Source: Desulfobulbus sp. (GTDB taxonomy: Bacteria; Desulfobacterota; Desulfobulbia; Desulfobulbales; Desulfobulbaceae). Taken from it: a stretch of 64,000 nt of DNA. The position numbers and the translations under genes are program-made. The notes below the pieces were generated by a model. It ran no database searches. It was not told the origin of the DNA and was given only the letters and a program-made list of their open reading frames with translations. This document shows, in pieces, positions 35,894-64,000 of the stretch (positions are counted from its first letter, which is position 1; each line of letters opens with the position of its first letter). The DNA is taken from positions 1,567 to 65,566 of the forward strand of contig JBFJXW010000001.1 in the NCBI GenBank assembly GCA_041622895.1. Reading direction: 5' to 3'.

Positions 35894-35901
35894 GACCAAC
35901 C

Positions 35902-37377: not shown

Positions 37378-37438
37378 CAGCGCAACCATGGGGAGTTGAA
37401 CTTCAATACTGCAAAAGAAAGGAAAAGGAAGAGGAGTT

Positions 37439-45844: not shown

Positions 45845-45869
45845 AGCATGCCTGCGGCGACGGGTGGGG

Positions 45870-46454: not shown

Positions 46455-46471
46455 GGTGAGGCCCTCTATGA

Positions 46472-46621
46472 TTAAAGGATTCCGATTTTTTCAAGCAAGA
46501 TCCAGGCGAACATACACAGGGTGACGCCAAAGAACAGGTAGCGCTCGGTTTCTTTGCTGAAGTAGGTTACGCCCTTTTCATGATAAAAACGTTTTTCAGA
46601 TTGATGGTTATGGGGATTCAT
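46472..46621 (-). CDS. unannotated 49-aa single-TM small protein
   Basis: Below the ORF-track length cutoff. AAGGAG 8 nt upstream of the ATG at 46621. Translation MNPHNHQSEKRFYHEKGVTYFSKETERYLFFGVTLCMFAWILLEKIGIL. Lies between the DASS and Yip1 genes on the same strand. Confidence 0.5.
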   Translation of the reverse strand: MNPHNHQSEKRFYHEKGVTYFSKETERYLFFGVTLCMFAWILLEKIGIL

Positions 46622-46729
46622 TGAGGTCAACTCCTTGTCTTCTTGGATTCCGGAGGAGGGCGCCAGCCTGCTGGGGGGACAGCCCGACGCCCCGCTCCGG
46701 TTTACAGGTGGGGGCTATGCAAACACCGT

Positions 46730-48586: not shown

Positions 48587-48653
48587 GTTGTAACCCCTTG
48601 TATAATTTGCAGGTCAAACCGCGTTATTTTCCACTTTCACGACAGGTTGCTTC

Positions 48654-49562
48654 CTAACTGGTGAGAATGCGAACCATCTCGAAAAACAGCTCCTGCTCGC
48701 GAACGACGCCGACTACCTTCGCCCCCGCCATGACGACCAGCCTCCGTGCCGAGGCCTCGTGCATAAGGTCGCAGACCTCCATGAGATTGGCATTTTTATC
48801 GATGGGGGGCGGTGGCAGGGACATGACATGAGCCAGCGGTATCTCCGCTATTTCCTTGAGCCGCTGGGTGAGCAACCCATTCCAAAAGATGTGAGAATAG
48901 CGCCAGGTGGTGCCAGCAGCCTGACTGCGGATCTGCTCATTCGATAAATACGCGGGACGTACGGCATCGACGATCTCCTCCATGGAAACGACACCGACGA
49001 TTTCTTCATCTTGAAAAATGAGAACGCTTCTATGCCCCGTCTGCATCAGCTTTTCAGTACTCTCGAAGTGCTGGCTCGCGTCACGAAGCTTAAGGATGGC
49101 CTCCTTGAGGGTCGATTCAGGGGTAAGAACCACATACTCCTCAATGGGTATCATCAGATCGCCAACCACTTTTTCCTGACCTTTTTTCGCTGCACCGCCG
49201 AAGTTGACCGCTTCATTAATTTTGTAGGCCAACAGATCAATGTCCGCAGGCTTGGTGAGGTAATCAAAAGCACCATGCTCCAAGGTTCGTTCAGCGCTGG
49301 GACGCTCACCATGGCCTGTGAGCATAATCACCGGAATCTCTGGATTGCTTTCCTTGATCCGGGCCAGTGTCTCTTCGCCATCCATCCCTCGCATACGGAT
49401 ATCCAGGACAACGACATCCGGTTTTTCCTTAATTTTCTCAAGAGCCTCTTCGCCGCTTTCAGCTAATATGGTCTGAAAACCCTTGCGTTCGAGTATCTTT
49501 GCCGTCGTGGTTCTGAAACGTTCTTCATCATCAACCATCAGAACCTTGATTTTCTCCATCAT
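48654..49562 (-). CDS. response regulator: receiver domain fused to a CBS pair
   Basis: 302 aa. REC (VLMVDDE...VVLDIRMRGMDG...MLTGHG...LTKP), then two CBS-like repeats (...VVGVVSMEEIV..., ...VVGVVREQELF...). Confidence 0.85.
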   Translation of the reverse strand: MMEKIKVLMVDDEERFRTTTAKILERKGFQTILAESGEEALEKIKEKPDVVVLDIRMRGMDGEETLARIKESNPEIPVIMLTGHGERPSAERTLEHGAFDYLTKPADIDLLAYKINEAVNFGGAAKKGQEKVVGDLMIPIEEYVVLTPESTLKEAILKLRDASQHFESTEKLMQTGHRSVLIFQDEEIVGVVSMEEIVDAVRPAYLSNEQIRSQAAGTTWRYSHIFWNGLLTQRLKEIAEIPLAHVMSLPPPPIDKNANLMEVCDLMHEASARRLVVMAGAKVVGVVREQELFFEMVRILTS

Positions 49563-49613
49563 AGTTTCCTCCGTTGGTACCCTTAGTTGCCGTTCATTCC
49601 AATTCCAGCCCCT

Positions 49614-50018
49614 TCATTTCGACACCATCCGCAACTTGTCCTCCATTGCTTTTCGTTTGTTGAATGCCTCATCCGCTTTTGCTACGAAATCGCCGATACT
49701 CACAGGTTTTATAAGAAAATCAAAAGCACCGAGCCGGAGTCCTTCAGATGCCTGATCCCTGCTGAAGGTGCCGGTTATCATGATCACCTCAACCAGAGGG
49801 TACAGCGTCTTGATCTCCGCCAGCGTCTCCAGGCCACTTATCCCCGGCATGTTCACATCCATGAAAATAACGTCCACCTCGTGCTCTTTGAGAAGGGTGA
49901 GTGCTTGATCACCTCGTGATGCGCTAAGCACCGTGGCACCCAGCCGCTCAAAAATCTTGGTCGTGTTCCAGGTCAACCGCTCTTCATCGTCAACAATCAT
50001 GATAGTCCGCTTCTTCAT
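49614..50018 (-). CDS. single-domain (CheY-like) response regulator
   Basis: 134 aa. IMIVDDE, phospho-Asp context VIFMDVNMPG, ITGT..., LIKP. Confidence 0.88.
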   Translation of the reverse strand: MKKRTIMIVDDEERLTWNTTKIFERLGATVLSASRGDQALTLLKEHEVDVIFMDVNMPGISGLETLAEIKTLYPLVEVIMITGTFSRDQASEGLRLGAFDFLIKPVSIGDFVAKADEAFNKRKAMEDKLRMVSK

Positions 50019-50135
50019 TTCATCTCCACCTGTCCTAAGAGACGAAGCCTTGGCGAATATTCGCTGCGGCTGTCCTTCTCATGCGTGAATCCCAGCTCGG
50101 TCAGCTTGCAAACTCCTCTTGCCTGAAAAAGAAAG

Positions 50136-50151
50136 AGCAATCTCCGTGCCA
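50136..50151 (-). promoter_or_regulatory. sigma-54 (-24/-12) promoter
   Basis: The minus strand reads TGGCACGGAGATTGCT, an exact match to TGGCAC-N5-TTGCW. ~118 nt upstream of the receiver-gene ATG (50018). Confidence 0.7.
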
Positions 50152-50301
50152 TGTTAAATAATTGAAATTAAACGATATTTTAAAAAATGCCGCGCCGTTG
50201 CTCGCAAACCCTTCGCAAACATGCGGTTTTGGCGGTCACGGTTGCAGCACCGCATACAGAAAAAAAATGACGGTCGGGGAGAGAAGATATCTGCGACAGA
50301 C

Positions 50302-50334
50302 AAAAAAAACCCCCTGACGGCAATCGTCAGGGGG
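50302..50334 (-). terminator. intrinsic terminator of the 50370-52064 kinase gene
   Basis: The minus strand reads CCCCCTGACG-ATTGC-CGTCAGGGGG followed by TTTTTTTT, 36 nt after the stop. Confidence 0.8.
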
Positions 50335-50369
50335 CAAGACGCCTCGATAGAGACATGGACACGAAGAGG

Positions 50370-52064
50370 TCAGGCAGTGGGCAGCAGGATACTGAAGACG
50401 GTCCCCTCTCCTTCACGGGTGGTTACATCGATAGTGCCCCCCATGGATTCCACCAGACCATAGCAGACGGCCAGCCCCAGTCCCGTCCCTTTTTCCGGCG
50501 GCTTGGTGGTGAAGAACGGGGTATAAATGTTGGCCAATACTTCCTTGGGAATGCCGGTTCCATTGTCGCGAATTTTAACGAGAGCCCATCCTGGCCCCCC
50601 TGATTCAGCGGAGAACTCCAATTTCCCGTCTGTATTGCCATGTCGTTCGACAATAGCATAGATGGCATTATTGAGCAGATTGAGGAAAATTTGCTGCAAC
50701 TTGCTGGCATCGCCGAGAATAGCGGGTGTTCCGGGTTTGACCACGCGGACAAATTCAATTCCACGGGTTTCTGCTTTTTTCGCGACCATGGAACCGATGC
50801 CCTGCACCAGCTCCTGCAAATCGACTCTCGTTTCTGCAGCCTGTTCTTTGCGACCAAAGCGCAGGATGGAACTGGTAATCTCGGAACAACGGTCGATCTG
50901 CAGCATGATTTGGTCAAGACTGTCATGCACATCGTCCTTGAGCTTACCCACCAGGGGCGCCGCATGCTGTTCCGCATCTTCCAGATCAAGCCCCAATAAG
51001 GTCAGTTCCGATTTCATAATCTGAAGCGGGTTGTTGATCTCATGGGCAAAGCTGGCCGTCATTTCTCCCAACTCGGCCAGCCGGACGCTGCGATACAGCC
51101 GGTCACGAAGATGGTCCTTTTCTCCCTCCGCCTCGATAAGTGTATTGCCGATGCGATTGCTGGCAAACAATGCCAGGGAGACCGTAATGACGCCGCCAAT
51201 GGCCGAAACAATCAAAATGTATATGCCGGCAGTATAGATATCACGAAAGGCATCACTGGTTTCCTGTTGCGCCACCAGTTTCCATCGCCCCTTATTGATA
51301 CTGGCAACGGCTGCGAGATAGCGCTTCCCGCTGCTGGCCTCCTGGACGAATGTCTGCACCCCATACACCGGGCCTAGATACGATTGGGAATCAGGGGCGA
51401 AATCCAGAAGCTCCCATTTTCCTTTGTGACGCGTCTGATACTGCCCCTTGCCGTTGAGCAGAAAGGCCTCCCCGGTTGTGCCGACCCGCACCGACTCAAC
51501 AACCTTGCTAAAGGCATCGCTATCGATAGTGGCGCGTAATATCAAAGGGTCGGTACCAACACTGGCCTTGGCAACCACAAAATGGGGCACGCCTCTAAAA
51601 CCCAAAAAGACATCACTGACATATTGCCCATATTTTTTGGTGGCGAGAAACCATTCGGCATCTGCATAGTTTTTATCCATCAACTTGTGCGGCCCGCAGT
51701 AGGCCACATGCTTTCCTGTGCCATCAATGAGGCCTAAATCAACGAATGCTCCGGTCTCCTGCTGCAGACGGTCGAATAATTTCTTTAATATTTCGGGGTT
51801 CGATAGTTCTTCCGTGGAAAACGTCTGCAGCATCAAGGCAAGGTCGCTTCTGCGCTCGTCGAGATAGCGTTCGATAAACCTCGCCTGATTTTGCACAATA
51901 CGCTTCATGGTATTGTGACTGCTATTGGTCAGCGAATTGATAAAAAAGGTGTAGGCAATCGCTAGCGCCATAAGGTAGGGAACCAAGGGGACAAAGACTA
52001 TACCAAGAAAAATCATTCTCCTGGCATACTGGAAATACCTCGGTCTTTTTTTATCTTTTCCCAT
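50370..52064 (-). CDS. membrane sensor histidine kinase with periplasmic Cache-like domain (paralog A)
   Basis: Start at the ATG at 52064 (MGKDKKRPRYFQY...). Two TM helices flank a ~270-aa periplasmic domain. H-box SFAHEINNPLQI and DNGTGIP, GTGLGLAV boxes. Confidence 0.9.
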   Translation of the reverse strand: MGKDKKRPRYFQYARRMIFLGIVFVPLVPYLMALAIAYTFFINSLTNSSHNTMKRIVQNQARFIERYLDERRSDLALMLQTFSTEELSNPEILKKLFDRLQQETGAFVDLGLIDGTGKHVAYCGPHKLMDKNYADAEWFLATKKYGQYVSDVFLGFRGVPHFVVAKASVGTDPLILRATIDSDAFSKVVESVRVGTTGEAFLLNGKGQYQTRHKGKWELLDFAPDSQSYLGPVYGVQTFVQEASSGKRYLAAVASINKGRWKLVAQQETSDAFRDIYTAGIYILIVSAIGGVITVSLALFASNRIGNTLIEAEGEKDHLRDRLYRSVRLAELGEMTASFAHEINNPLQIMKSELTLLGLDLEDAEQHAAPLVGKLKDDVHDSLDQIMLQIDRCSEITSSILRFGRKEQAAETRVDLQELVQGIGSMVAKKAETRGIEFVRVVKPGTPAILGDASKLQQIFLNLLNNAIYAIVERHGNTDGKLEFSAESGGPGWALVKIRDNGTGIPKEVLANIYTPFFTTKPPEKGTGLGLAVCYGLVESMGGTIDVTTREGEGTVFSILLPTA

Positions 52065-52147
52065 TATGGCCTCTCTTCTTCCCGTTTCCCTGCAGTCGCA
52101 CACTCCATAATTCGTGCACGAGCGCGGTATTGATTTTGCATAATTTA

Positions 52148-52163
52148 AGCAAGGCGCATGCCA
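52148..52163 (-). promoter_or_regulatory. sigma-54 (-24/-12) promoter
   Basis: The minus strand reads TGGCATGCGCCTTGCT (TGGCAT-N5-TTGCT). ~85 nt upstream of the kinase ATG at 52064. Confidence 0.6.
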
Positions 52164-52197
52164 TTGCGAGTTGACACCCGCGCCCCCTCCCGGGCAA

Positions 52198-52214
52198 CAA
52201 GCAATAATTGCTTG
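52198..52214. promoter_or_regulatory. palindrome CAAGCAA-TAA-TTGCTTG (candidate activator binding site)
   Basis: Perfect 7-3-7 inverted repeat, 35-50 bp upstream of the 52148-52163 sigma-54 promoter, in the divergent spacer shared with the activator gene at 52374. Confidence 0.4.
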
Positions 52215-52373
52215 CAAAAAAGGGGAGATACGTCATAACACTCACGATGCCCGACACATTGCGCATTCGCTCGCTGGCGCGATTCCTCGGCACGCAAGGC
52301 ATGGCATTGCCAAATCGATGCGACCCTCTCCGCTCGCGATACCTATTATGGAAGCTTTGCGAGAAACAGGAAA

Positions 52374-54944
52374 ATGGAAAAACAGGACAAAGAGATGCCT
52401 ACAGACGCCACTCGCCCCCTCTTCAGCCGTGTCCTTATACTCTGTGTTCCGCCTGCCCTTCTGCTTATCGCAGGTATCGGGACCCTCGGCTTTTTCACTA
52501 TCCACCAGTATGTAAACACCGCTATTGAACGGAATGTACGGATCCGCAGCACCGTTATTGCCAGGTCTATCGAAACCTTTCTGGAAAACCGCATTCGAGA
52601 TATCTCTTATCTCAGACAAGGCCGTGTGGATCGTTCGGCACTCCTGGAATTCATGCAGCGGCAGGCACGTCTTGACCCGGACCTGTACCGTGAAGCAGCC
52701 TTCCTCTCGACCTCACCATCATCAAGTATTCTGTTCGTCATGGCGGAAGGAATGGTTCGGCAGATTCCCCCCGAGGACTTTTCCGATGTACACCCCAACC
52801 CCATGCTTCTTCCTTCGAACTTGCACGCACTGGATGCCGAGGAAGTGTTCTGCACGACGATTATGGCCACGGATTTTCCTTTTCCTGCCAAAAGCGGTAT
52901 GGGCAACCGACGGGAATTCAGAACCTTTCGCATGATCACCCCTTATTCAGAACCGGGCATGCCCCCTGGATATCTAGTGTTAGGCGTGGATGCACGACGT
53001 CTGCGCAACGTACTGAGTCAGGTCTCCACTTCAAAAGACAAAGCCTGGGGATTTGAGCGCAGCAATGAAGTGCGTTTCAGTTACCTCTTCGATACCGAAG
53101 GCTGGATGCTTTTTCAGTCCGAAGCACCTGACAGCAACGATAAAAAATTGTCCACCTATCTTGCTCGCTCTGGTTTTCTCGGTACGCTTGGCAAGCCGGG
53201 TCTGCTTTCTGCTTTCCTGCCGGACAAGGAATATGAGTTGTATTGGGAAACGGTCAATAAAGTGCGCAAGGAACAGGGTGGCGTGGTGCGGATGAACGAT
53301 CGGGGCATTCACAAATCTCCCGATGCGTCTACTTCTTTTATGGCATTCGAACCAATTCGATATACAGGGAAGAAGGGGGAAGAACCGCGACTCTTTTCCG
53401 GCATGGTCTATATCGATCGGAGCCAACTGGCCTTTACTGCCAGAAAATCCGCATTCATCATTACGCTCGTATGGGTCGGCGGAACCTTGTCGCTGCTGAC
53501 CCTGTTCCTTTGCATCACCCGCCTCTTTTTCATTCACCCATTGCAGCGCTTGAAGCACAACATTGCTGCACGACTGCAGCAGGGTGTGGACAGCCCCATG
53601 ATACAACCAGGTGGGTGTGAAGAATTGAACGAGCTTGCCACAACAGCCAACCAACTCTTTCACAACCTCGATGCATGCGAGCGCAAGCTGAACAATCTTT
53701 CGGAAGATCCCATGTCCGAAAAGATGCAACAACCTGTTGATTTACGGTCAAGTTATCAATCAGCGATGGCTATGGATGACCAATTTTCCGATATTATCGG
53801 CATCAGTCCGGGCCAGATTGCACTCAAGGCTCAGGTGCTGAAAGCGGCAGGAACGAATGTTGATATCTTTATAGTGGGCGAGACAGGTACCGGAAAGCAA
53901 TTAGTTGCAGAAGCAATCCACCGGAATTCGGCACGAAAAAACGGTCCGTTCGTGTCTATTAACTGCGGCGCACTGAATGAAAGCCTGCTCCTGGATGCCC
54001 TTTTCGGCCACGTCAAGGGGGCGCATAGCGAGGCTAAAAACGATCGCAAGGGGGCCTTTATCGAATCTTCAGGTGGTACGCTTTTTCTCGATGAGATTCA
54101 GGCGGCGTCGCCTAAGGTCCAGCAATCGCTGTTGCGTGCGATAGCCGAACGGAAAATACGTCCCCTAGGCAGTGATGCCGAGATCGATGTGGATATCCGT
54201 CTTGTGACGGCAACGAACAAGGACCTGACACAACTGATCAAGGACGGACAATTCCGAGAAGATCTGTTTTACAGACTCTATGTCCTGACAATCCACACCC
54301 TGCCGCTCCGTCATCATAAAGAGGACATTCCCCTGCTTGCCTACCACTATCTGAAGCAGACGCAAGAATATGTCGACAAGTCCAACCTCCTGTTTTCCAA
54401 AGGCGCCATAAAAAAACTGCTTGCACACGACTGGCCGGGCAATGTCCGTGAGCTTGTCAATTGTATAACACGCACAGTGGTATTTGCTGAAGGACCGGTG
54501 ATTCAGGCCGACGAGTTACGCATGGAAGATCCCGAAATATATCTCAACGGGTCTGCACCCCAGCGATTGCACACGACGGTGACCAACCCTGATGGGACAC
54601 CCGCGACCAAAGGTGGCCGTTCGAACCAGAAGGATGATACCAGTACCCCGGTATCGAACGCCGCGGATGCGGCTCCTGCAGGCCGTGATCACCATCTTCC
54701 ACCGTTGGTCCTCTCTCCTCGTCAGATCAAAGTCCTCCCGGCCCTCTTGGAACGCAAAGTTATTACCCGCAAAGAGTACCAGCATTTTTTCGATGATCCC
54801 TTGCCGGCACGGACTGCGAATTACGACCTCAACGATATGATGCACAAAGGTATTCTGAAACGAGAGGGAGCCGGCTCAACGACGCGCTACGTAGTAGCGC
54901 ATACGGCTGATATACAGGTCTTGAACGACATGATAAACGCCTGA
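52374..54944 (+). CDS. membrane-anchored sigma-54 activator-like protein (sensor-HAMP-AAA+-wHTH), paralog 1
   Basis: 856 aa. TM (res ~20-45), ~310-aa extracytoplasmic domain, TM (res ~360-385), HAMP-like linker, Walker A GETGTGKQ, GAFTGA position reads GAHSEA. C-terminus LSPRQIKVL...ARTANYDLNDMMHKGILKREGAGSTTRYVV. Confidence 0.85.
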   Translation: MEKQDKEMPTDATRPLFSRVLILCVPPALLLIAGIGTLGFFTIHQYVNTAIERNVRIRSTVIARSIETFLENRIRDISYLRQGRVDRSALLEFMQRQARLDPDLYREAAFLSTSPSSSILFVMAEGMVRQIPPEDFSDVHPNPMLLPSNLHALDAEEVFCTTIMATDFPFPAKSGMGNRREFRTFRMITPYSEPGMPPGYLVLGVDARRLRNVLSQVSTSKDKAWGFERSNEVRFSYLFDTEGWMLFQSEAPDSNDKKLSTYLARSGFLGTLGKPGLLSAFLPDKEYELYWETVNKVRKEQGGVVRMNDRGIHKSPDASTSFMAFEPIRYTGKKGEEPRLFSGMVYIDRSQLAFTARKSAFIITLVWVGGTLSLLTLFLCITRLFFIHPLQRLKHNIAARLQQGVDSPMIQPGGCEELNELATTANQLFHNLDACERKLNNLSEDPMSEKMQQPVDLRSSYQSAMAMDDQFSDIIGISPGQIALKAQVLKAAGTNVDIFIVGETGTGKQLVAEAIHRNSARKNGPFVSINCGALNESLLLDALFGHVKGAHSEAKNDRKGAFIESSGGTLFLDEIQAASPKVQQSLLRAIAERKIRPLGSDAEIDVDIRLVTATNKDLTQLIKDGQFREDLFYRLYVLTIHTLPLRHHKEDIPLLAYHYLKQTQEYVDKSNLLFSKGAIKKLLAHDWPGNVRELVNCITRTVVFAEGPVIQADELRMEDPEIYLNGSAPQRLHTTVTNPDGTPATKGGRSNQKDDTSTPVSNAADAAPAGRDHHLPPLVLSPRQIKVLPALLERKVITRKEYQHFFDDPLPARTANYDLNDMMHKGILKREGAGSTTRYVVAHTADIQVLNDMINA

Positions 54945-55197: not shown

Positions 55198-57726
55198 TCA
55201 CACAACGACATAACGGGAAGATGGACCGCGCCCGGTTTTTTTCAGTATCTTTTTGGCAACAAGATCGTGCAAATCGTACTGAGCCGTGCGGACCGAAATG
55301 GCTCCTCCCACTGCAGCCTGATATTCGCCCCGACTGATGACGCCCTTGCTGGAAATTGTCGGCCAGGCTTTCCGCTGCCGAGGGTTCAGCTCAACGCCCG
55401 GGTCGTCTGCTACAGCATACTCAGCATCCAACGCCGCAGATACAGGATCAGGGGTGTCCTGAAACGCCGGCGGTGGCGCAGGTTTCGACTCGGGCAGTTT
55501 CATCGCAATCCCTGTTTCCTGCCCGCTTCTTTCATCAAAAAGAATCTGTTCGGCAAGCAGCAGCTCGCCTTCAGTAAAGGCCAGGGACCGAACAAGGCAG
55601 TTTTTCAGTTCACGGATATTTCCAGGCCAATCATAGTGCATCAGTTTTTCAAGAGCGCCCCGACTGATGCCGACTGGAGGTTTGTCGGAAATCGCCGCAT
55701 TTTCTTCCAGATAATATTTGACCAGCACCGGAATATCTTCCTTACGCTGCCGCAGCGGAGGCATGTTGATGGTAATCACGGCCAGACGGTAGTAGAGATC
55801 CTCCCGAAAATCGCCGGTACGCGAAAGCTGAAGCAGATCAACGTTGGTGGCAGCGATAATCCGGGCATCAAAAGCCACATCCGTATCGGAGCCCAGTGGC
55901 CGAATGCGTCGTACCGATAATGCCCGCAACAAGGCCTGCTGCACCTTGAGCGAAGCATTACCGATCTCGTCAAGATGCAGGGTTCCCCCTGATGCCGCGA
56001 CAAACGCCCCCTTGCGATCGGTCTGGGCATCGGAAAAGGCCCCCTTGATATGGCCAAACAGGGCGTCCATCAACAAATTTTCGTCAAGGGCACCGCAGTT
56101 GATGGAAATGAAGGGTGCTTTCGCACGATGACTGACGGAGTGGATGGCCTCCGCGGTCAATTCCTTGCCGGTTCCGGTTTCACCAATGATAAGCACATCG
56201 GCCAGTACCCTGGAGGCCTTGTGAATCTGCTGACGCAGTTCGTTAACGGCAGAGCTGCCGCCGACAATGCCGTAGAGGGGCATGGCCAGCAACTGCGGGT
56301 CAAGGGCCGGGTTGTTTTTAATCTCTTTTTCGAGATTGACGCTTTGGCGCATACGATCATCTTCAAAAATCCCTTCACGCAAAATAGTGTCATTGCGCGC
56401 AATCTGCAGCTGTAACAGCAGGATATTGATCGACCGCTGAAACTGATTGATTTCAGCAAAAAGAGGGCTCAGCGCCAGGGGTGAAGCATCGTCACCGGAG
56501 ACACGGACATCGACCGCTTCCGCCAGGAGGTCGAGCGGTCGGCTGATGCGGCGCGCGATAAAATACATGGCAAGGAATACCAGCAGCAGGCCCAAGACGA
56601 GACTGATGGCCAGTGTCCCGGCGATACGATAGGTGGAGGCCATGAACATAAAACTGGTGTCAATGCACCCGATGCCGCCGACAATGCGCTGCGTCGCCGA
56701 ATCTTCATTGAAGACAATGGGGACATAACTGAGATAGAGGGTCCTGTCGGTTCCGGACGGGGCCATAAAAGGCTTGGAGATAAATACCTGCCCTCCTTTC
56801 CCGCCCTGGACATCAGAGACCATGGCCCAATACAGGTTGTTCTCAAATCCCGGGCGAAAGGCGGTATCAAATCCGGGACGCCCAACGTCCCCCTGCAATC
56901 CGGAACGGAGCAGATCAACGGACAACTCCGCCTGGTGCTGATCCGGAGAAACCGATTCAAAAAGCAGCCAGCCCGAGGCATCAAAAAAGAAAGTCTTCTT
57001 CTGCTCGCTTTCCTGTGGGAACAGATAGAGCGGCGAATGCTTGGAGCTGTGCAGGGAAACGATATCGCGCAGGCGCGGCAGATCGAGCGAGAGTGTCAGC
57101 TGGCCCCTGTAGACCTTGTTGGCTCCATAGACGGGAGTCGAAAGGCGAAAGACATGCATGCCAATGGAATGCACCCCTCCCTGAACAGGAACAGAGGGAT
57201 AGATCACCTCCAGAGGGTCACTGATATGGACATAGCCGGCAGGTTTGCCCATGAGCTGCTCACGACGGGTAAACACACTGAACTTGGCGCCCATGGCCTG
57301 TTCGGGCGGGATGGAGACCACCGCGGAACCGGTGTTGACGAGAACAAAGTGTTCATCGGTAGCGTGCCCCTGAAAGGCGATCTCTCGATAACAGTTGCGC
57401 ACTTCCGATGAAGTTGCGGCCAGATGCTCGATAATCGACTCCTGGGTGAGCGGCATGCGCGATAAAAATTCCAACTCATACCGTGCCGCGACCAGCAGCC
57501 TGTTGATTTCATACGCCTGCGCCATTGCCCGGAGCTGCGCATTTCTCGAATACGCCTGATTGAGATACAACGAGGCGATCTTGTAGGTAACAGCCACCGA
57601 GACGGAAAGAATGACTCCCAACAGCAGCGTGCCCAAAAGAATCAGGAACTTGCCGATACTCCAGGCATAGATGGAACCATCGGTCCGGATGACTGGATTG
57701 AGGAGGGGGGGGTGGAAATAGCGCAT
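55198..57726 (-). CDS. membrane-anchored sigma-54 activator-like protein, paralog 2
   Basis: 842 aa. Same architecture as paralog 1. Walker A GETGTGKE, GAFTGA position reads GAFSDA. C-terminus LNPRQRKAW...VRTAQYDLHDLVAKKILKKTGRGPSSRYVV. GAGGA before the ATG. Confidence 0.85.
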   Translation of the reverse strand: MRYFHPPLLNPVIRTDGSIYAWSIGKFLILLGTLLLGVILSVSVAVTYKIASLYLNQAYSRNAQLRAMAQAYEINRLLVAARYELEFLSRMPLTQESIIEHLAATSSEVRNCYREIAFQGHATDEHFVLVNTGSAVVSIPPEQAMGAKFSVFTRREQLMGKPAGYVHISDPLEVIYPSVPVQGGVHSIGMHVFRLSTPVYGANKVYRGQLTLSLDLPRLRDIVSLHSSKHSPLYLFPQESEQKKTFFFDASGWLLFESVSPDQHQAELSVDLLRSGLQGDVGRPGFDTAFRPGFENNLYWAMVSDVQGGKGGQVFISKPFMAPSGTDRTLYLSYVPIVFNEDSATQRIVGGIGCIDTSFMFMASTYRIAGTLAISLVLGLLLVFLAMYFIARRISRPLDLLAEAVDVRVSGDDASPLALSPLFAEINQFQRSINILLLQLQIARNDTILREGIFEDDRMRQSVNLEKEIKNNPALDPQLLAMPLYGIVGGSSAVNELRQQIHKASRVLADVLIIGETGTGKELTAEAIHSVSHRAKAPFISINCGALDENLLMDALFGHIKGAFSDAQTDRKGAFVAASGGTLHLDEIGNASLKVQQALLRALSVRRIRPLGSDTDVAFDARIIAATNVDLLQLSRTGDFREDLYYRLAVITINMPPLRQRKEDIPVLVKYYLEENAAISDKPPVGISRGALEKLMHYDWPGNIRELKNCLVRSLAFTEGELLLAEQILFDERSGQETGIAMKLPESKPAPPPAFQDTPDPVSAALDAEYAVADDPGVELNPRQRKAWPTISSKGVISRGEYQAAVGGAISVRTAQYDLHDLVAKKILKKTGRGPSSRYVVV

Positions 57727-58056
57727 GGCTTTTCCTCATTGCGAGATATTCTGGATGCATCACGAAATCTTTGCATTTTTCTACCTGGCATCGTGCAAAA
57801 CAACAAGCGGAATTTCAATACTCCCCCGAAATACATAGTTAAAAATTTTTTGCACAAATACTGGCACACTTATTGGTTATCTTGGGCAGCTGACTTCCTC
57901 TACTCTGGGCACCGCACTCCCCCGACGAAGGAAAGAATATGCTGATCCGAGCGTCCGGATCCCCCTCCACGGCGCTCGGGTCTCCCCTTACCCTTTCCCG
58001 GCAGCAGGCCACCGGGAGATTTGAGAAAACGCTATTCAAACAACAAGGAGATCAAG

Positions 58057-58356
58057 ATGAAAACGAGACTACAACGGTTATGGTGGACACTCCTGACCTT
58101 GGTTCTGCTCACTCCGAGCCTGTCCCTGGCTGCCGGCGGTGGTAAAAGCGCTCCCATTGTCATTGTTGCAGATACCCGGCAACTCGATGGTATCATGGCC
58201 TGGTGGGCTAACCTCTACAACGAAAGTCATTTTCAGTTCATGATTCTGACCATCATCATCATTCCCGTGACCGGTGTCCTTTTCGGCGTCCTCGCTGACA
58301 TCATCATGGGATGGATCGGAATTGACCTGAAATCCCGCGAACTCGCTGAGCATTAA
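58057..58356 (+). CDS. 99-aa signal-peptide plus C-terminal-TM protein, unknown function
   Basis: ATG at 58057 after AAGGAG. Translation MKTRLQRLWWTLLTLVLLTPSLSLAAGGG... then the TM FMILTIIIIPVTGVLFGVLADIIMGWI. From memory, resembles the small 'DVU0150 family' proteins of Desulfovibrio (unverified). Confidence 0.7.
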   Translation: MKTRLQRLWWTLLTLVLLTPSLSLAAGGGKSAPIVIVADTRQLDGIMAWWANLYNESHFQFMILTIIIIPVTGVLFGVLADIIMGWIGIDLKSRELAEH

Positions 58357-58377
58357 TTCGAACCTAAGGAGATTCTC

Positions 58378-59433
58378 ATGGACTGGCTCTATATTCTCAT
58401 GCCCATTGCCGGAGTTAAGATCTTCTGGCCCGGGCTCATCATCCTCGGCGTAGGTGTTGGTATCATCGGTGGTTTCTTTGGCATGGGCGGCGCCTGGATG
58501 GTTACCCCCGGCCTCAACATCCTCGGATTTCCCATGGCCTTTGCCATCGGTACGGACATTGCCCATATGGCCGGTAAATCTTTGATTTCGACCATGCGCC
58601 ACGGCAAATTCGGCAATGTCGACTATAAACTCGGCATGATCATGCTGGTGGGTACGGTTGTCGGTTTTGAAGCCGGCGCCCAGATGGTCATGTGGCTGGA
58701 GCGACTCGGCTCAGTTGAAAAAGTCGTGCGCTGGATCTACATCGGCCTGCTGGCTTTCATTGCCTGGATGGTATTCCATGATGTCGCCAAGCGCCGCGCC
58801 AAAGAAAAAGCCGCATCCGCTCGGGGCGAAGTACTGGAAGCGGGCGCCACTGGTGTCGAGTGGCACAAGACCCTGCACAAAATCAAAATCCCGCCGATGA
58901 TCCATCTGGAAGTCGCCGGTATCTACTGCAGTGCCTGGCTGCCGATCTTCGTCAGTTTCCTTACCGGCTGGTTGGCTGGTATCCTTGGCATCGGCGGCGG
59001 TCTGATCCGTATGCCGGCCCTGATCTACATGATCGGCTGTCCGACCCACGTTGCCGTCGGCACCGACCTCTTTGAAGTAGCCATTTCCGGTCTCTACGGC
59101 GCCGCAACCTATACCTTTAAAGGACGAACCGAGCTGGTGGCCGCCATGATCATGCTGGTCGGCGCAGCCATGGGTGCTCAGGTCGGCGCGGTTGCCACCA
59201 AATACATCAAGGGCTACGGCATACGTATCGCCTTCGGCCTGGCGGTTATCGGCTGCGCGCTGTCCATCCTGATGAAACTGGTACAGCCTTGGGTGCCCCA
59301 GTACAAAGCCCTGCTCGACCTCTCTTCCACGGTTCTGGTCCTTGGCCTGGTCACCTTGATGTCCCTGTACATCTTCGTCAGGATGGTTGCCGGGGTAAAA
59401 GAAGAATTACGTGCCAAGCAGCAGCGAGTCTAA
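58378..59433 (+). CDS. TauE/SafE (DUF81) family anion permease, long form
   Basis: 351 aa. Two homologous halves each containing ...G(G/I)(F/L)(F/G)G(M/I)GGG... motifs (GGFFGMGGAW; GILGIGGGLI), separated by a charged ~48-aa loop. Confidence 0.8.
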   Translation: MDWLYILMPIAGVKIFWPGLIILGVGVGIIGGFFGMGGAWMVTPGLNILGFPMAFAIGTDIAHMAGKSLISTMRHGKFGNVDYKLGMIMLVGTVVGFEAGAQMVMWLERLGSVEKVVRWIYIGLLAFIAWMVFHDVAKRRAKEKAASARGEVLEAGATGVEWHKTLHKIKIPPMIHLEVAGIYCSAWLPIFVSFLTGWLAGILGIGGGLIRMPALIYMIGCPTHVAVGTDLFEVAISGLYGAATYTFKGRTELVAAMIMLVGAAMGAQVGAVATKYIKGYGIRIAFGLAVIGCALSILMKLVQPWVPQYKALLDLSSTVLVLGLVTLMSLYIFVRMVAGVKEELRAKQQRV

Positions 59434-59456
59434 CCAGGAAAATACATAAGGAGAAT

Positions 59457-60074
59457 ATGATGAACATTAAAAACATACTGCTCGCTGTCGCCGCAGTCAG
59501 CCTGGTCATGGGGCCCGTGGGATGTAAAGCCGATTTTTCCAAAGTGGAACAGGGCAGATGCATTGCCTTTAACAAGGACACCAAAGAGGTGACCCTGATC
59601 CATGACAGTGCCATGGATACCCAGAAACCGGTATACGATGTCCTGCCGCCTTCGGTCTTCAAACTGCCGACCGATCCCAAGGAAACCGGTCCCGAACCCA
59701 AGGCCGGTCAACGGATGAAGCTCGATACTGAGAAAAAAGTGATCGTGATCTTTGACACCACCACCCAGAAATTCGCGGATGTCCCGATCACCATCGTCGA
59801 TCTGCAGCAGCCGATTGACAAGGAACATCCACTGGTCTATGACAAGGCGGAGAAGAAAGCGAAAAAATTTCCAGTGATCGATCAGGAAAAGAAGACCATC
59901 ACGGTCTACTCCGGACGCCAGAAAATGCTCTGCACCTTCTCGGTTCCGGATGCATACTTCACCTACCCGCCAAGCACCTGGGATGCGGGCGATGAGGTAC
60001 GCTTGACCTATAAGGTCGCCGGTCAGGCCCTTCGATTCATGAATATCTCCAAAACCGATATTTTCAAAAAATAA
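59457..60074 (+). CDS. lipoprotein, unknown function
   Basis: AAGGAG before the ATG at 59457. MMNIKNILLAVAAVSLVMGPVGCK lipobox. Lys/Asp-rich soluble domain; possibly DUF4881-type (memory only). Confidence 0.75.
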   Translation: MMNIKNILLAVAAVSLVMGPVGCKADFSKVEQGRCIAFNKDTKEVTLIHDSAMDTQKPVYDVLPPSVFKLPTDPKETGPEPKAGQRMKLDTEKKVIVIFDTTTQKFADVPITIVDLQQPIDKEHPLVYDKAEKKAKKFPVIDQEKKTITVYSGRQKMLCTFSVPDAYFTYPPSTWDAGDEVRLTYKVAGQALRFMNISKTDIFKK

Positions 60075-60131
60075 CAACCGGTCCGCGGGCGGGATTGAAC
60101 CCCGCCCGCTTTTTCACAACGGGAGAATGTC

Positions 60132-60353
60132 ATGTCTGAATACAAATTTTTCCTTTTCCATAAACTGCTGGTGGTGAGCATCAACGTTCTGGTGCTCGTC
60201 GGGCTGACCGTTGCCATGTACCGGGCATCACTCACCCCTGATGATTTCAACGTCACGTTTTTTAAAACCATGTTCTCCCTGCTCATGCCCACCATGCTTC
60301 TCGGCTTTATCGGCAAGCGAATCCTCAATCGCCGCCGCATCGCACTGACATGA
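60132..60353 (+). CDS. 73-aa two-TM membrane protein
   Basis: GGGAG before the ATG. LLVVSINVLVLVGLTVAMY and MFSLLMPTMLLGFIG helices. The stop overlaps the next gene's start (ATGA at 60350-60353). Confidence 0.6.
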   Translation: MSEYKFFLFHKLLVVSINVLVLVGLTVAMYRASLTPDDFNVTFFKTMFSLLMPTMLLGFIGKRILNRRRIALT

Positions 60354-61180
60354 TTGCCGGCGCAGGCTACGTCCGCTGGCAAAAACGAGCCGGCACCTTT
60401 GCCATGGTAGTACTGGTGGCCGCCCTGCTTTCGTTTGCAGACGCCCTGGTGGGCGGCCTTACCGGAAAACATGGCACCATCAATCTCGTCCCCGACAGCC
60501 GTTATGCAATCAGCGGCCCCCTGCCGCCAAAAACCACGGAGATCAAGGAGTTCGTCATTGAAGGTCAGGCAAGAAACGGCAGAGTCCGCCTCGTTCCGGA
60601 AACCATCTTTTCCGGCTACTTGTTCGGCGGCGCCATGTGGCGCGGGGCGATTGTGGTTGATCCCCTTGCCCGCCAAGGCCGTTATGTCATCTCGGTCAAG
60701 GATCGATTTGGCGAAAAACAGAATCCGGCCCTTGTGTTCAAGGTCAGGGTCTGGCCCGATCAGGCCACTCGGAATGCCAACGCCCCCTCCTTGCTGACCC
60801 GCATGACCGGCAAAAGCCCTTATCTCTTTGCCATTGGCTTCGCGCTCTGCGGCATTGCAGCAGGCGGAGCGAACTTCCTTCTCGGCCGGCTCTGGGCGCG
60901 CCATCTGGCCGCACACCACTGTGGTGAAATCTATAAATTGCGTCACACGGAACACGGCACGGAAATAACCTGTGAAATCCACTGCCTTTCGGCTGTCCAC
61001 CCAGGCATGCCAGGTGCCATTTACCGCGCTTCGGGAGAGATGCTCTCAGCGGCTCACGTTTCAACCTGTGAAAACAACCAGGTACTGATGCTGGTCGACA
61101 CACCGCAATTCGTCCGCCTGGGAGATGTAGCCTGTCTGCAGCTCGATTCGACCGAGGGAAGAGATGTTGAGGCCGGCTGA
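60350..61180 (+). CDS. 276-aa bitopic membrane protein with Cys/His-rich cytoplasmic tail
   Basis: TM1 FAMVVLVAALLSFADALVGGL, ~130-aa beta-rich periplasmic segment, TM2 LFAIGFALCGIAAGGANFLLG, tail HHCGEIYKLRHTEHGTEITCEIHC... Translationally coupled to the 73-aa ORF. Confidence 0.65.
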   Translation: MIAGAGYVRWQKRAGTFAMVVLVAALLSFADALVGGLTGKHGTINLVPDSRYAISGPLPPKTTEIKEFVIEGQARNGRVRLVPETIFSGYLFGGAMWRGAIVVDPLARQGRYVISVKDRFGEKQNPALVFKVRVWPDQATRNANAPSLLTRMTGKSPYLFAIGFALCGIAAGGANFLLGRLWARHLAAHHCGEIYKLRHTEHGTEITCEIHCLSAVHPGMPGAIYRASGEMLSAAHVSTCENNQVLMLVDTPQFVRLGDVACLQLDSTEGRDVEAG

Positions 61181-61499
61181 TGGCACAACCTCCTTTTCCG
61201 GAAGACGCTCCGCGTTCTTGAAAAGTAATTGACAACTATTGGCAAGCTTTGTAGTGGTTACAGGTGGATATCGGATGGTCGGACCCCTCGGATTCCTTTC
61301 TTTTCACGCCACAAAGCAGCGTGTGGCAACGATCACTCATGACCATGTCTCGCCACAGCGCAACGAGGAGCCCCTTGATCCCAAAGAGTTCAGGACAACG
61401 TACAACGATACGCTCTATTTCTTCTTACCAACCCCCCTTCTCCCGGTCCGGCTGAGTCTGCCCGCACCACATTGATGACGCAGACACAAGGATAGTACA

Positions 61500-63152
61500 A
61501 TGGAAAGAAACTACACAAAACTCTGGTGGCGTCACTGCCTGGCTATTATCTGTTTTTCCGTTATTCCGCTGCTGTTCGTCAATATATCCCTCTATATACT
61601 TTTCGATAGGATTTACACCGAAAAAGTCACCGAAACGCTGCGCAGTACTGCAGAAAATCGGAGAGATGCTATTGATCTGTTCTTTAACGAACGCATCGCT
61701 CAACTGTTCACGGTCGCCAACACCAACACCTTCCAGGACCTTACCAACGAGACCTATCTCAATAAAGTATTCGATGTCATGCATGCCAAGTCCAACACCT
61801 ACATGGACATCGGTATCATCGACATGGAAGGCCACCATCTTTCTTATGTCGGCCCGTATTACAACCTGCTTAAAACAGTAAATTACAAGAACGAGCCCTG
61901 GTTCGATGCCGTCAAGGCCAACGGCATCTACATAAGCGATATCTTCATGGGCTACCGCAAGGTTCCGCACTTTATTATCGCTGTGATGGTCAGGGAAAAG
62001 AGCACGTCCTGGATACTCAGAGTCACCATTAATCTGAAAAATATCGATGAAATTGTGCAGAAGGCATGGATTGGCAATCTGAGCGATGCCTTTATCGTCA
62101 ACAGTAAAAACATGCTGCAGACCAGGCCGAGGTTCGGAGGCACTTTTCTGGAACCTCCGGTGAATCCCGATTTTTCATCGACAGTGACGACCAGGGTGAC
62201 CCGCCTTACCTTTCAGGGCATTGAATCCTTCTACGCGGCCATCCCCATCCACAACACCAAATGGGTTCTGGTTATCAAGGAAAACCCCGATGAAATGCTC
62301 TCTCCCTTGCAGAAAGGAAAATACTGGGCCGTGTTTCTCACCATGCTGGGTCTGGCCCTTATCACCACCGGTGCCGCCTTTTTCACCAACACCCTGATCA
62401 ACAGGATCAAGAAAACCGATCACGAAAATGCCATCAATTCCACCATGCTGCTGCAGGCAAACAAGATGATAGCCCTCAGCAAGATGGCCGCCGGAATCGC
62501 CCATGAGGTCAACAACCCCCTGGCCTCGATAGCCGAAAAAGCGGGCTGGCTCAAAGACCTTCTAGAGGAAGAGGATATTGCCGCAAGCAAGAATTTTGCT
62601 GAATTCAGCGAATCGGTCGACAAAATCGAACGGCATGTCGACAGAGCACGAAAAATAATTCATAATCTGCTCGGGTTTGCCCGTAGAATGGAGCCCGCCA
62701 AAGAGAAAATCAATGTCAACAACCTGCTTGACGAAACCACCGGCTTTCTGGAAAACGAAGCCAAATATGTCAATATCAACATAAAAAAACAGTACGACGA
62801 CAATGTTCCGGTTATTACCAGCGACCTGTCACAAATCCAGCAAGTCGTACTCAATCTGCTGAACAACGCCATCGACGCCATCGGTCATGACGGCACGGTG
62901 ACCGTCTCCAGCCGGTATTTTGAAAAATCCGACGAGGTGGCAATTGCTGTCGCCGATACCGGGCCTGGAATACCGGAATCCGAATTGAACAAGATCTTTG
63001 ATCCGTTCTTTACGACCAAGGAAGTTGGCAAAGGCACGGGGCTGGGCCTTTCCATATCGTACAGTATCATTGAAAAGCTGGGTGGAAAAATACAGGTTAA
63101 CAGTAAGGTAGGCGAGGGAACGGTCTTCACGATTCTCCTCCCGAAACACTAA
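61500..63152 (+). CDS. membrane sensor histidine kinase with periplasmic Cache-like domain (paralog B)
   Basis: 550 aa. TM, ~250-aa periplasmic domain, TM. H-box AAGIAHEVNNPLASI, boxes [24 protein letters not shown]. The N-terminal region aligns with the kinase at 50370-52064. Confidence 0.9.
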   Translation: MERNYTKLWWRHCLAIICFSVIPLLFVNISLYILFDRIYTEKVTETLRSTAENRRDAIDLFFNERIAQLFTVANTNTFQDLTNETYLNKVFDVMHAKSNTYMDIGIIDMEGHHLSYVGPYYNLLKTVNYKNEPWFDAVKANGIYISDIFMGYRKVPHFIIAVMVREKSTSWILRVTINLKNIDEIVQKAWIGNLSDAFIVNSKNMLQTRPRFGGTFLEPPVNPDFSSTVTTRVTRLTFQGIESFYAAIPIHNTKWVLVIKENPDEMLSPLQKGKYWAVFLTMLGLALITTGAAFFTNTLINRIKKTDHENAINSTMLLQANKMIALSKMAAGIAHEVNNPLASIAEKAGWLKDLLEEEDIAASKNFAEFSESVDKIERHVDRARKIIHNLLGFARRMEPAKEKINVNNLLDETTGFLENEAKYVNINIKKQYDDNVPVITSDLSQIQQVVLNLLNNAIDAIGHDGTVTVSSRYFEKSDEVAIAVADTGPGIPESELNKIFDPFFTTKEVGKGTGLGLSISYSIIEKLGGKIQVNSKVGEGTVFTILLPKH

Positions 63153-63161
63153 AAGGACACA

Positions 63162-63545
63162 ATGGATACATTGCGGGTGTTGATTGTTGATGATGAGGAT
63201 GATTTCAGAGAGACCATTGTCAAGAGATTAAACGCGAGAAAAATCTTCGCCGAAGGCGCAGCCAGCGGCATCAAAGCGTTGGAGGTCCTTGAAACCAAGG
63301 ATTTTGACGTTATTGTGCTGGATGTCAAGATGCCGGATATGGATGGAATTGAAACCCTGCGCCATATTAAAAAGCTCAAGCCTGAGATCGAGGTCATCAT
63401 GCTGACCGGGCATGCCTCCGTCGAATTCGGGCTCAAGGGGATGCAACTGGGGGCGTTTGACTATGTCATGAAGCCCGCCCCGCTGAACGAGTTGCTCGAC
63501 ACCATCGGCCAGGCCTTCAACAAGAAGCGCGGCATTGTTCATTAA
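63162..63545 (+). CDS. single-domain response regulator
   Basis: 127 aa. VLIVDDE, VIVLDVKMPDMDG, MLTGHAS, VMKP. 9 nt after the kinase stop. Confidence 0.9.
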   Translation: MDTLRVLIVDDEDDFRETIVKRLNARKIFAEGAASGIKALEVLETKDFDVIVLDVKMPDMDGIETLRHIKKLKPEIEVIMLTGHASVEFGLKGMQLGAFDYVMKPAPLNELLDTIGQAFNKKRGIVH

Positions 63546-63656: not shown

Positions 63657-64000
63657 ATGAGAGTGTGGGATACAAGTCATCTGCTGGATACTATACCTTC
63701 GGACCGGACGGAATCCGAGCATGTATATGACTCCATGGACAGCCAGGCTAACCTGAGCAGTATCAGGCGCCATTTCAAACAGCTCCAGACCCGATTGATC
63801 CTGGGACTTATCCTCGGCTTTCTTCTTCCCAACGCCCTGCTGTCCACCTATTTCCATTTCCAATTCACCCACACGCTGAAGAAGAGTGCCATGCTCAATC
63901 TGGTGGCCATTGCGGAGAGTCAGAAAAACACCATTGACCTGTATCTGCAGGAACGGGTGGTCAACCTCTACAATCTGTTCCACAGCACGGATTTCACCCT
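63657..64000 (+). CDS. sensor histidine kinase, N-terminal part (paralog C; continues past window end)
   Basis: Open frame from the ATG at 63657 to the window end (no stop, so absent from the track). ...RLILGLILGFLLPNALLSTYF (TM) then LNLVAIAESQKNTIDLYLQERVVNLYNLF, which parallels ...TAENRRDAIDLFFNERIAQLFTV of paralog B. Start codon uncertain. Confidence 0.6.
   Translation, partial: MRVWDTSHLLDTIPSDRTESEHVYDSMDSQANLSSIRRHFKQLQTRLILGLILGFLLPNALLSTYFHFQFTHTLKKSAMLNLVAIAESQKNTIDLYLQERVVNLYNLFHSTDFT

Follow-up and report, generated by a model that had tools for sequence, protein, structure and literature searches.

Which function joins five neighbouring genes that recur together in anaerobes of the sulfur cycle? 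The question is raised by a 64,000-nucleotide (nt) stretch of DNA from Desulfobulbus sp. (hereafter the window, meaning the whole stretch that was analysed), in which five co-oriented genes, g1–g5, span 58057-61180 of the + strand. Our analysis reveals that they very probably encode a real and conserved five-protein functional unit, orthologous to DVU0150–DVU0146 of Desulfovibrio vulgaris, and that this unit is, as far as its sequences tell, probably a transporter complex. The best explanation of the whole, which we put forward tentatively and at slightly less than an even chance, is a sigma-54-dependent operon for an anion transporter of the inner membrane, in which several subunits are grouped around a TauE/SafE permease. 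An earlier reading made from the letters alone (the sequence-only reading) had called the system undescribed. This description could not be upheld, as the cluster has already been published, both as the sigma-54 regulon of DVU0151 and as a gene set induced in syntrophy, and its first gene has both NCBIfam and Pfam families. The operon family is known and named but functionally uncharacterised, and the window locus is a further member. New here are the cross-phylum synteny, the extreme conservation of the permease, a hairpin between g3 and g4, natural g4::g5 fusions and two folds with no significant match in the PDB; these points sharpen the system as an experimental target and do not reveal its substrate.

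Organization of the five-gene locus

According to the listing of open reading frames (ORFs) of the window, g1 (58057-58356, 99 amino acids (aa)) encodes a small membrane protein of the DVU0150 family, g2 (58378-59433, 351 aa) a TauE/SafE (TSUP) permease and g3 (59457-60074, 205 aa) a DUF4881 lipoprotein, while g4 (60132-60353, 73 aa) and g5 (60350-61180, 276 aa) encode proteins with two transmembrane (TM) segments each and no family match in Pfam or NCBIfam; all five lie on the + strand. For g1 and g3, the first ATG within a longer TTG-started ORF was taken as the start. The gaps g1–g2, g2–g3 and g3–g4 measure 21, 23 and 57 nt, and the stop codon of g4 overlaps the start codon of g5 as ATGA at 60350-60353. 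The common orientation, the gaps and the overlap given by the sequence-only reading were thus all re-found. Its assignment of a good Shine–Dalgarno (SD) sequence to every gene stands for g1–g4 (AAGGAG ahead of g1, g2 and g3, and GGGAG ahead of g4) and falls for g5, ahead of which no recognisable SD was seen; translation of g5 therefore probably depends on coupling to g4. All five products are membrane or periplasmic proteins, as had been proposed, and the set is conserved. An Rfam scan of 57600-61600 returned zero matches, and folding of the ~170-nt 5' leader (z = -0.7) gave no indication of a riboswitch-like structure.

Conservation of the gene set and its order

A DUF4881 alignment was scanned against one genome per species (185,579 species), which gave 296 relatives. 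The best 80 of these 296 loci were examined with 10-kb flanks, and their six-frame ORFs were searched with the window proteins. When synteny was checked in this way, the order of a sigma-54 activator on the - strand followed by g1–g5 on the + strand was found in every one of the 80 loci with a long enough contig, across five orders and two phyla, with the activator divergent from g1 in nearly all of them. The refuting condition set by the sequence-only reading, a lack of synteny in other genomes, therefore does not hold. The hosts comprise Desulfobulbales, Desulfovibrionales (Nitratidesulfovibrio, Desulfomicrobium, Desulfocurvus, Solidesulfovibrio and others), Syntrophobacterales, Desulfobacterales/Desulfatirhabdiaceae and two metagenome-assembled genomes (MAGs) of Nitrospirota; most of the named hosts belong to lineages that we take to be sulfate reducers or sulfur disproportionators. 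The Syntrophobacterales have a kinase, a receiver and a shorter activator upstream of an unaltered set of five genes. For a Desulfobulbus propionicus-like contig, independent gene calls give genes of 99, 351, 204, 73 and 279 aa, followed by kinase, receiver, kinase and receiver. Two contigs labelled as Acidobacteriota MAGs (L045 and L055) score almost equally to the Desulfovibrionaceae loci L043 and L047, and these Acidobacteriota occurrences may reflect mis-binning.

The median identity to the window proteins across orders is 76–91% for g2, 52–81% for g1, 55–75% for g3, 33–67% for g4 and 25–61% for g5. Judging from this gradient (g2 > g1, g3 > g4, g5), g1–g3 appear to be a slowly evolving core and g4–g5 a fast-evolving accessory pair. 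Permease identity of ~80% between phyla is unusual, and a permease that is kept at 76–91% between orders and phyla and always accompanied by four partners points to an unusually strongly constrained function. The system stands almost unchanged in many sulfur-cycle anaerobes, methanogen partners among them, and the unit to be taken into experiments is five proteins, with g1–g3 as core and g4–g5 as accessory pair, fused in some lineages.

The published counterpart in D. vulgaris

The parallel to DVU0145–DVU0151, drawn by the sequence-only reading, proved correct: g1 belongs to the DVU0150 family, g3 carries DUF4881, and the GAFSDA loop of the divergent activator is close to GAFSEA. DVU0151 has been described as a sigma-54 activator of the one-component type, in which a GAFSEA loop is combined with a long N-terminal sensor region and an atypical DNA-binding domain (PMC4641369). 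Its target is DVU0150–DVU0146, a single predicted sigma-54 operon classed under 'transmembrane transport', and the paper states that data on substrate specificity do not exist for these TSUP systems (PMC4641369). Furthermore, DVU0146–DVU0150, and DVU0148–DVU0150 in particular, were up-regulated in sulfate-free syntrophic co-culture with Methanosarcina barkeri; the genes had no functional annotation and had shown no differential regulation under the pure-culture conditions tested earlier, and DVU0145 is the adjoining response regulator (PMC4265775). For differential regulation between syntrophic and sulfidogenic growth, that paper (2014) cites transcriptome studies of 2009–2010. In the open literature searched, no function was assigned to DVU0145–0151, Dde_069x, Despr_28xx or DUF4881, in agreement with the sequence-only reading.

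The two loci share the gene set and its order, a divergent sigma-54 activator with GAFS(D/E)A, two further genes after the lipoprotein gene and then a response regulator; a sigma-54 promoter is predicted in D. vulgaris, and the window has a candidate. In D. vulgaris, the gene for the DVU0150-family protein is followed by one as long as a TauE permease gene and by that of a putative lipoprotein matching DUF4881 in size, and the published sizes agree with g1–g3 (297 nt for DVU0150, 612 nt for DVU0148 and ~1.1 kb between them). Orthology to D. vulgaris, whose locus lies outside the 80, rests on the family model, the Nitratidesulfovibrio loci and these published gene sizes. The window differs in its host, a Desulfobulbus relative, in having two Cache kinase/receiver pairs instead of a single receiver, in the TTGG at position -12 of its promoter candidate, and in a lineage-specific Cys/His-rich stretch of g5.

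The core proteins g1–g3

In the Pfam and NCBIfam scan, PF01925 TauE, DUF4881 and the DVU0150 family were matched by g2, g3 and g1, respectively. The permease g2 scores 141.7 bits against PF01925 (gathering score 32.6) over model positions 1–236 of 237, with the model covering residues 20–296 of the protein. The extra length, a charged stretch of ~40 aa inserted in the centre and 55 aa at the C-terminus that add a further hydrophobic helix, bears out the earlier statement that the permease is ~100 aa longer than usual and has a charged central loop. This loop is conserved and His-rich (TGxEWHKTLHKIKIPPMxH). The two-fold repeat of g2 carries Gly-rich motifs (GGFFGMGGAW..P and LGIGGGLIRMP) and a GTD motif in each half. 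Among the g2 orthologues, C184, C221 and C293 show no variation (77 of 77), and they sit in hydrophobic segments (YCSAW, GCPTH and IGCA). The same sequences agree without exception at H63 and H75 and almost without exception at H167, H176 and H224. Sequence and profile searches of PDB chains found no relative of g2 with a solved structure.

The small protein g1 matches NCBIfam NF040783 (DVU0150_fam) with 156.4 bits (cut-off 70) over residues 1–99 of 99, and its homologues carry Pfam PF28216 'DVU0150' in precomputed annotation. By hydropathy and the alignment across orders, a signal peptide that ends in LSLAAGGG comes first; a short stretch in the periplasm (VIVADTRxL..AWWANLYNESH) leads to a single TM helix, and the 12 residues of the C-terminal end, IGIDLKSRELAEH, are cytoplasmic. 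H58 and the C-terminal H99 are conserved among orthologues. One JGI record labels a g1 homologue (P0286) as 'nitrate reductase NapE component'. We did not adopt this label; it is probably an annotation carryover from weak resemblance among small single-TM proteins, since no Pfam or NCBIfam NapE match was seen for the window g1.

The lipoprotein g3 scores 255 bits against PF16222 (DUF4881). An alignment of 12 sequences shows its lipobox Cys, C23, without variation, and in a larger one of 56 sequences at least 90% retain it. The AlphaFold2 (AF2) model has a predicted local distance difference test (pLDDT) value of ~95 over residues 28–200, and the modelled mature domain is all-beta. A fold search of this model against the PDB gave nothing below E 0.05, the best hits (E 5e-2) being OB-like barrels (Mpa, CusF and ModE), and the sequence and profile search of PDB chains found no relative.

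The accessory pair g4 and g5

By hydropathy, g4 has one clear hydrophobic helix and a second, weaker one; it is kept in 75 loci with the conserved motif P[DE]xF..F.K.FF....PTL. The AF2 model of g5 (pLDDT 91) shows a TM helix, a periplasmic Ig-like beta-sandwich (~44–134), a second TM helix (~157–188) and a small cytoplasmic beta-barrel (~191–263). Its fold search against the PDB gave nothing below E 1e-3 (best E 2e-3), the weak matches being generic Ig/chagasin-like and F1-ATPase N-terminal-barrel-like folds, and no relative was found among PDB chains by sequence and profile search. An exhaustive profile search with g5 collected 340 clusters at 50% identity, nearly all of 250–295 aa and aligned end to end.

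Six of the representatives are natural g4::g5 fusions of 363–374 aa with a g4-like N-terminus (E 1e-14 to 5e-26 with the g4 profile), and one fusion gene directly follows TauE and DUF4881 genes. Together with the ATGA overlap, these fusions support the view that g4 and g5 would work as one accessory unit. A 551-aa protein (P0428), whose length had suggested a triple fusion, has an N-terminus of low-quality sequence and was treated as a miscalled ORF. In the lineage with fused genes, a conserved single-TM micro-ORF of 38–39 aa lies ~20 nt further downstream (MLLEYLIIILLVVLSLLAGIHIGNRLRKLKKDIPKKKS at L083 3048-3164 and MVLEYFIILLILFGALLIGLNLGSRLRNIKKNDPKKKGS at L085 1177-1296), the product of which may be a further small subunit; no counterpart of it was found in the window.

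The sequence-only reading had suggested that the cytoplasmic tail of g5, HHCGEIYKLRHTEHGTEITCEIHC, looks like a metal- or redox-binding element. The alignment speaks against this idea, as the Cys/His positions of the pattern HHC...C..HC are kept in just 1–38 of 74 orthologues (C191 in 38, H189 in 31, C208 in 23, C212 in 14 and H190 in 12), and distant orthologues, which read GKAEIY...F.LG..HG, have no Cys/His at these positions. On this pattern of conservation the stretch is lineage-specific and not a defining metal or redox site, and the conserved residues potentially capable of redox or metal chemistry lie in g2 and g1. The candidate Cys/His for mutation are accordingly those of the permease and g1, not those of the g5 tail.

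A conserved hairpin between g3 and g4

In enterobacteria, stem-loops between cistrons, such as those that follow malE or hisJ, give the genes of a transporter operon unequal expression. In the window, a GC-rich, terminator-like hairpin of nine G–C pairs with a 7-nt loop lies inside the 57-nt g3–g4 gap (60085-60109, + strand) and is followed by TTTTT to 60114. Hairpin and U-run fit the form of an intrinsic (Rho-independent) terminator, and a terminator scan found them to be unique within the window. Nearly all loci have a stable GC-rich stem-loop in this gap, the stem sequence of which varies between orders. RNAalifold gives the same nine pairs for 24 Desulfobulbales, six of the nine with compensatory double changes, and in a distant lineage (L083) the g3–g4 gap of 150 nt is strongly structured (z = -5.3) and has a canonical terminator at its end. 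The five-gene operon of the sequence-only reading is thus real and conserved but not a plain one, as the conserved hairpin, which that reading had not noted, splits the cluster into three plus two genes.

The hairpin resembles the malE/hisJ-type stem-loops in being stable and placed right after the gene of a periplasmic component and before the remaining genes; it differs in following three genes, the permease gene included, and in a U-run like that of an intrinsic terminator. Its conserved role may be partial termination or protection of the upstream transcript, and either would yield more g1–g3 than g4–g5. The hairpin probably sets the ratio of g1–g3 to g4–g5. An excess of g1–g3 would fit the D. 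vulgaris literature, because DVU0148–DVU0150, the equivalents of g3–g1, were singled out there as induced (PMC4265775).

Regulators surrounding the operon

The divergent activator (55198-57726, - strand, 842 aa) is a membrane-bound sigma-54 enhancer-binding protein (bEBP; Pfam Sigma54_activat, 198 bits). Its TM segments 28–46 and 372–390 flank a ~330-aa periplasmic Cache-like region (weak dCache_1 and HAMP matches), and its AAA+ sigma-54 domain carries the above GAFSDA, a variant of the GAFTGA loop. By these sequence features it is a probable orthologue of DVU0151. A candidate sigma-54 promoter (-24/-12), TGGCACACTTATTGGT, likewise not noted by the sequence-only reading, lies at 57862-57877 on the + strand, 180 nt upstream of the g1 start. 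It reads TGGCAC-N5-TTGG, with a perfect -24 element and GG at -12 where GC is expected. A matching element occurs 125–240 nt upstream of g1 in 38 of 75 loci by a strict pattern and in 50 of 75 by a relaxed one. The TTGG variant is common to the Desulfobulbales loci at the same distance, and the other orders have the canonical TTGC. In D. vulgaris, a sigma-54 promoter divergent from DVU0151 has been reported (PMC4641369).

Downstream of g5, Pfam identifies a sensor histidine kinase (61500-63152, + strand; dCache_1, HisKA and HATPase_c), a receiver-only response regulator of 127 aa (63162-63545, + strand; Response_reg, 105.6 bits) and the first 115 residues of a second kinase (~63657-64000, + strand), which starts a second kinase/receiver pair and runs off the window end. 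Pfam and TM calls therefore agree with the divergent membrane bEBP and the Cache kinase/receiver pairs noted earlier. Two such pairs follow the operon in Desulfobulbales loci, a kinase is also placed so in some Desulfomicrobium-like loci, and a receiver gene comes right after g5 in Nitratidesulfovibrio and Desulfomicrobium-like loci; DVU0145 may be the counterpart of the window receiver. The downstream kinase and the activator have sensor domains with no detectable relationship to each other. The 319-nt gap between g5 and the kinase gene (61181-61499) has no predicted terminator. A sigma-70-like match at 61472-61501 is unlikely to be the kinase promoter because it overlaps the kinase start codon.

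Comparison with known transport systems

The permease g2 matches the TauE/SafE/TSUP model (TC 2.A.102) end to end, the family of TauE from Cupriavidus necator, SafE1, TsaS, CysZ from Corynebacterium glutamicum and KbuT from Neisseria meningitidis. To our knowledge, the characterised TSUP members are single-gene transporters without dedicated subunits. The permease g2 differs in always occurring with four partner proteins, in its His-rich central loop, in its three invariant Cys and in the additional helix at its C-terminus. Sulfate reducers are rich in TSUP genes, the function of which is not predictable (Marietou et al.). In addition, TSUP has been linked to alpha-ketobutyrate use in Neisseria, and acetate and glycine phenotypes are cited for Shewanella (PMC12671195, 2025); the family is thus not restricted to sulfur compounds. 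The sulfur-oxyanion or metal substrate put forward by the sequence-only reading is a conjecture.

The tripartite systems TRAP (DctPQM) and TTT (TctABC) offer an analogy of layout only, in that a large permease, one or more small membrane subunits and an extracytoplasmic protein are encoded together, frequently under the control of a two-component or sigma-54 regulator by which extracellular substrate is sensed. They share neither sequence nor fold with the window proteins: the permease family differs, and g3, an all-beta lipoprotein of ~180 residues, lacks the two lobes of such a binding protein. Among the five proteins, Pfam and NCBIfam gave no matches to DctP- or TctC-type binding proteins or to DctQM- or TctAB-type subunits.

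Proposed working and alternative explanations

In the proposed working, the membrane-bound activator would sense an extracellular or periplasmic cue through its Cache-like domain and, going by the promoter motif and the D. vulgaris report (PMC4641369), would fire the -24/-12 promoter ~180 nt upstream of g1. The single-TM subunit g1, the permease g2 and the periplasmic lipoprotein g3 may form the core, as suggested by their conservation, tight spacing and invariant order, and g3 could be the subunit for periplasmic capture or gating. The hairpin after g3, itself a conserved structure, might attenuate or stabilise the transcript and so lower the level of g4–g5, which would together span the membrane as one accessory unit with a periplasmic Ig-like domain and a cytoplasmic beta-barrel, consistent with the fusions and the stop/start overlap. 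The complex would move a small anion, and our preferred guess is that, under sulfate scarcity, it takes up one that contains sulfur (of the type of sulfite, thiosulfate, sulfate or a sulfonate). Such uptake is favoured because of the induction in sulfate-free co-culture, the outward-looking regulator and lipoprotein, the hosts, mostly of lineages taken to be sulfur metabolisers, and the invariant membrane Cys; an externally sensing activator and a periplasmic lipoprotein would fit uptake better than efflux. As an assignment, uptake of a sulfur anion is doubtful.

Several points weigh against the transporter explanation in this form. We infer both the substrate and the direction of transport, and the physical association of the five proteins is likewise suggested by genomic data alone. 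TSUP members have been linked to the non-sulfur substrates alpha-ketobutyrate, acetate and glycine (PMC12671195), and in the PDB fold and sequence searches g3 had no detectable similarity to any known solute-binding protein. In the D. vulgaris supplement on randomly barcoded transposon sequencing (RB-TnSeq), DVU0148 and DVU0150 are marked not essential, and the text files of that supplement yielded no fitness phenotype. The -12 element of the window is TTGG, not TTGC. The U-run after the hairpin is present in the window and a few others and missing in many relatives, which makes it uncertain whether the conserved role is termination or RNA stabilisation. Finally, the sulfur-metaboliser host pattern covers only the best 80 of the 296 relatives.

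Export by the same complex of sulfite, a central cytoplasmic intermediate of the hosts, or of an organosulfonate would be the classical TauE/SafE role, with the lipoprotein and the small subunits as accessory or stabilising parts; the sequence-only reading had proposed this direction, and the name of the Pfam family and the long-known cases of TauE and SafE (Weinitschke 2007, cited by PMC5840216) suggest it. We consider it unlikely, as the D. vulgaris cluster is reported to be up-regulated in sulfate-free co-culture, where little sulfite should form, and as a periplasmic-sensor regulator and a dedicated lipoprotein would fit uptake or extracellular sensing better. It is also rather improbable that the complex transports a small organic anion without sulfur (acetate, pyruvate, a keto-acid or formate, for instance) that matters when the cell ferments or grows in syntrophy. 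Carboxylates and amino acids are frequent ligands of Cache domains, and Cache-type sensor proteins surround the locus. The TSUP links to alpha-ketobutyrate, acetate and glycine (PMC12671195), the induction of the D. vulgaris cluster in syntrophy (PMC4265775), the Ech-type hydrogenase operon directly downstream in nine Desulfovibrionales loci and two PPDK_N/PEP-utilizer genes after the kinase pairs of the D. propionicus-like contig point in the same direction. However, the Ech and PPDK_N/PEP-utilizer neighbourhoods are lineage-specific and not general, and most of the named hosts belong to lineages taken to be dissimilatory sulfur metabolisers, which is unexpected for a general carboxylate carrier. 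Lactate is not a differential cue, because it feeds D. vulgaris in mono- and co-culture alike (PMC4265775).

In the Desulfobulbales, Nitratidesulfovibrio and Desulfomicrobium-like loci, what comes after g5 is a receiver-only regulator or kinase/receiver pairs, g5 has a signalling-like layout in which two TM helices join a periplasmic Ig-like domain to a cytoplasmic beta-barrel, and g4–g5 evolve fast, like partner-specific adaptors. The assembly might thus be mainly a sensor ('transceptor'), in which the permease and g4–g5 report flux or envelope state to the kinase/receiver pairs or the activator; but many other Desulfovibrionales, Syntrophobacterales and Nitrospirota loci keep the five genes without a kinase or receiver downstream within reach, and the g5 domains match no known signalling domain, so that we regard a primary sensor as quite improbable. 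The terminator-like hairpin could also be read as the boundary between two unrelated units, g1–g3 and g4–g5, that lie side by side, and the published syntrophy work indeed stresses DVU0148–DVU0150, the g1–g3 equivalents (PMC4265775). This is very improbable: wherever a locus has sufficient sequence, and regardless of phylum, g3 is succeeded by g4–g5, DVU0150–DVU0146 are predicted as a single sigma-54 operon (PMC4641369), and the 57-nt gap of the window leaves no promoter room because hairpin and SD fill it.

The five-protein anion transporter also has a bolder form, speculative and somewhat improbable, in which it would represent a previously unrecognised class of multi-subunit secondary transporters confined to dissimilatory sulfur-cycling anaerobes. 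A TSUP permease would here need a new-fold DUF4881 lipoprotein receptor and three small membrane subunits, and the three permease Cys would handle thiosulfate, sulfite or sulfane sulfur. If true, such a class could be a missing route of sulfur-anion scavenging under sulfate scarcity and would explain the syntrophy induction, and a lipoprotein serving as substrate receptor would be a new architecture for secondary transport.

Wider neighbourhood

A conserved-neighbour search over the 80 loci found that only the regulators are general, and that the Ech hydrogenase and universal-stress-protein (Usp) neighbours are lineage-confined. In nine Desulfovibrionales loci, the operon for the energy-converting [NiFe] hydrogenase of the Ech type comes after g5 and shares its strand; in L056 (12104-16725), NuoL-, NuoH-, NuoB-, NuoC- and NuoD/NiFe large-subunit-like genes start ~330 nt after g5. 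This neighbour is of interest as the D. vulgaris cluster was reported to be induced in syntrophy together with the periplasmic hydrogenase (Hyn) and Hmc genes. Usp genes lie on the + strand between the activator and g1 (11 ORFs in nine loci, for example L064 2434-2964), and may be the first operon gene there. The two PPDK_N/PEP-utilizer genes of the D. propionicus-like contig (L081 14503-18840) encode 877 and 871 aa and lie after the kinase/receiver pairs on the same strand.

Among relatives, the immediate neighbour of the activator is a spermine-synthase-like gene. In the window this gene lies at 42123-43601, and a block of ~8.7 kb (43979-54944) separates it from the activator. The block contains genes for NhaB, a Yip1-domain protein, a 618-aa DASS/Na_sulph_symp transporter, a receiver-CBS protein, a receiver, a dCache kinase and a paralogous membrane sigma-54 activator (52374-54944), which is 36% identical to the operon activator and has GAHSEA instead of GAFTGA. 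The two activators in the window are thus paralogues, as are the two kinases. Because of the direct adjacency in relatives, the block looks like an insertion or duplication of a second sensor–transporter module; L001 shares part of it, and the rest of the loci are without it. The DASS gene (Na+/sulfate-symporter family) under the paralogous activator (46730-54944) was considered as a link to sulfate and set aside, as it is missing from other loci; it carries little weight because the block looks specific to this genome. The remainder of the window holds unrelated housekeeping and betaine-type genes, including a row of genes at 34190-38389 for a GMC oxidoreductase, an aldehyde dehydrogenase and an OpuAC-type binding protein, which looks like a choline-to-glycine-betaine module unrelated to the operon.

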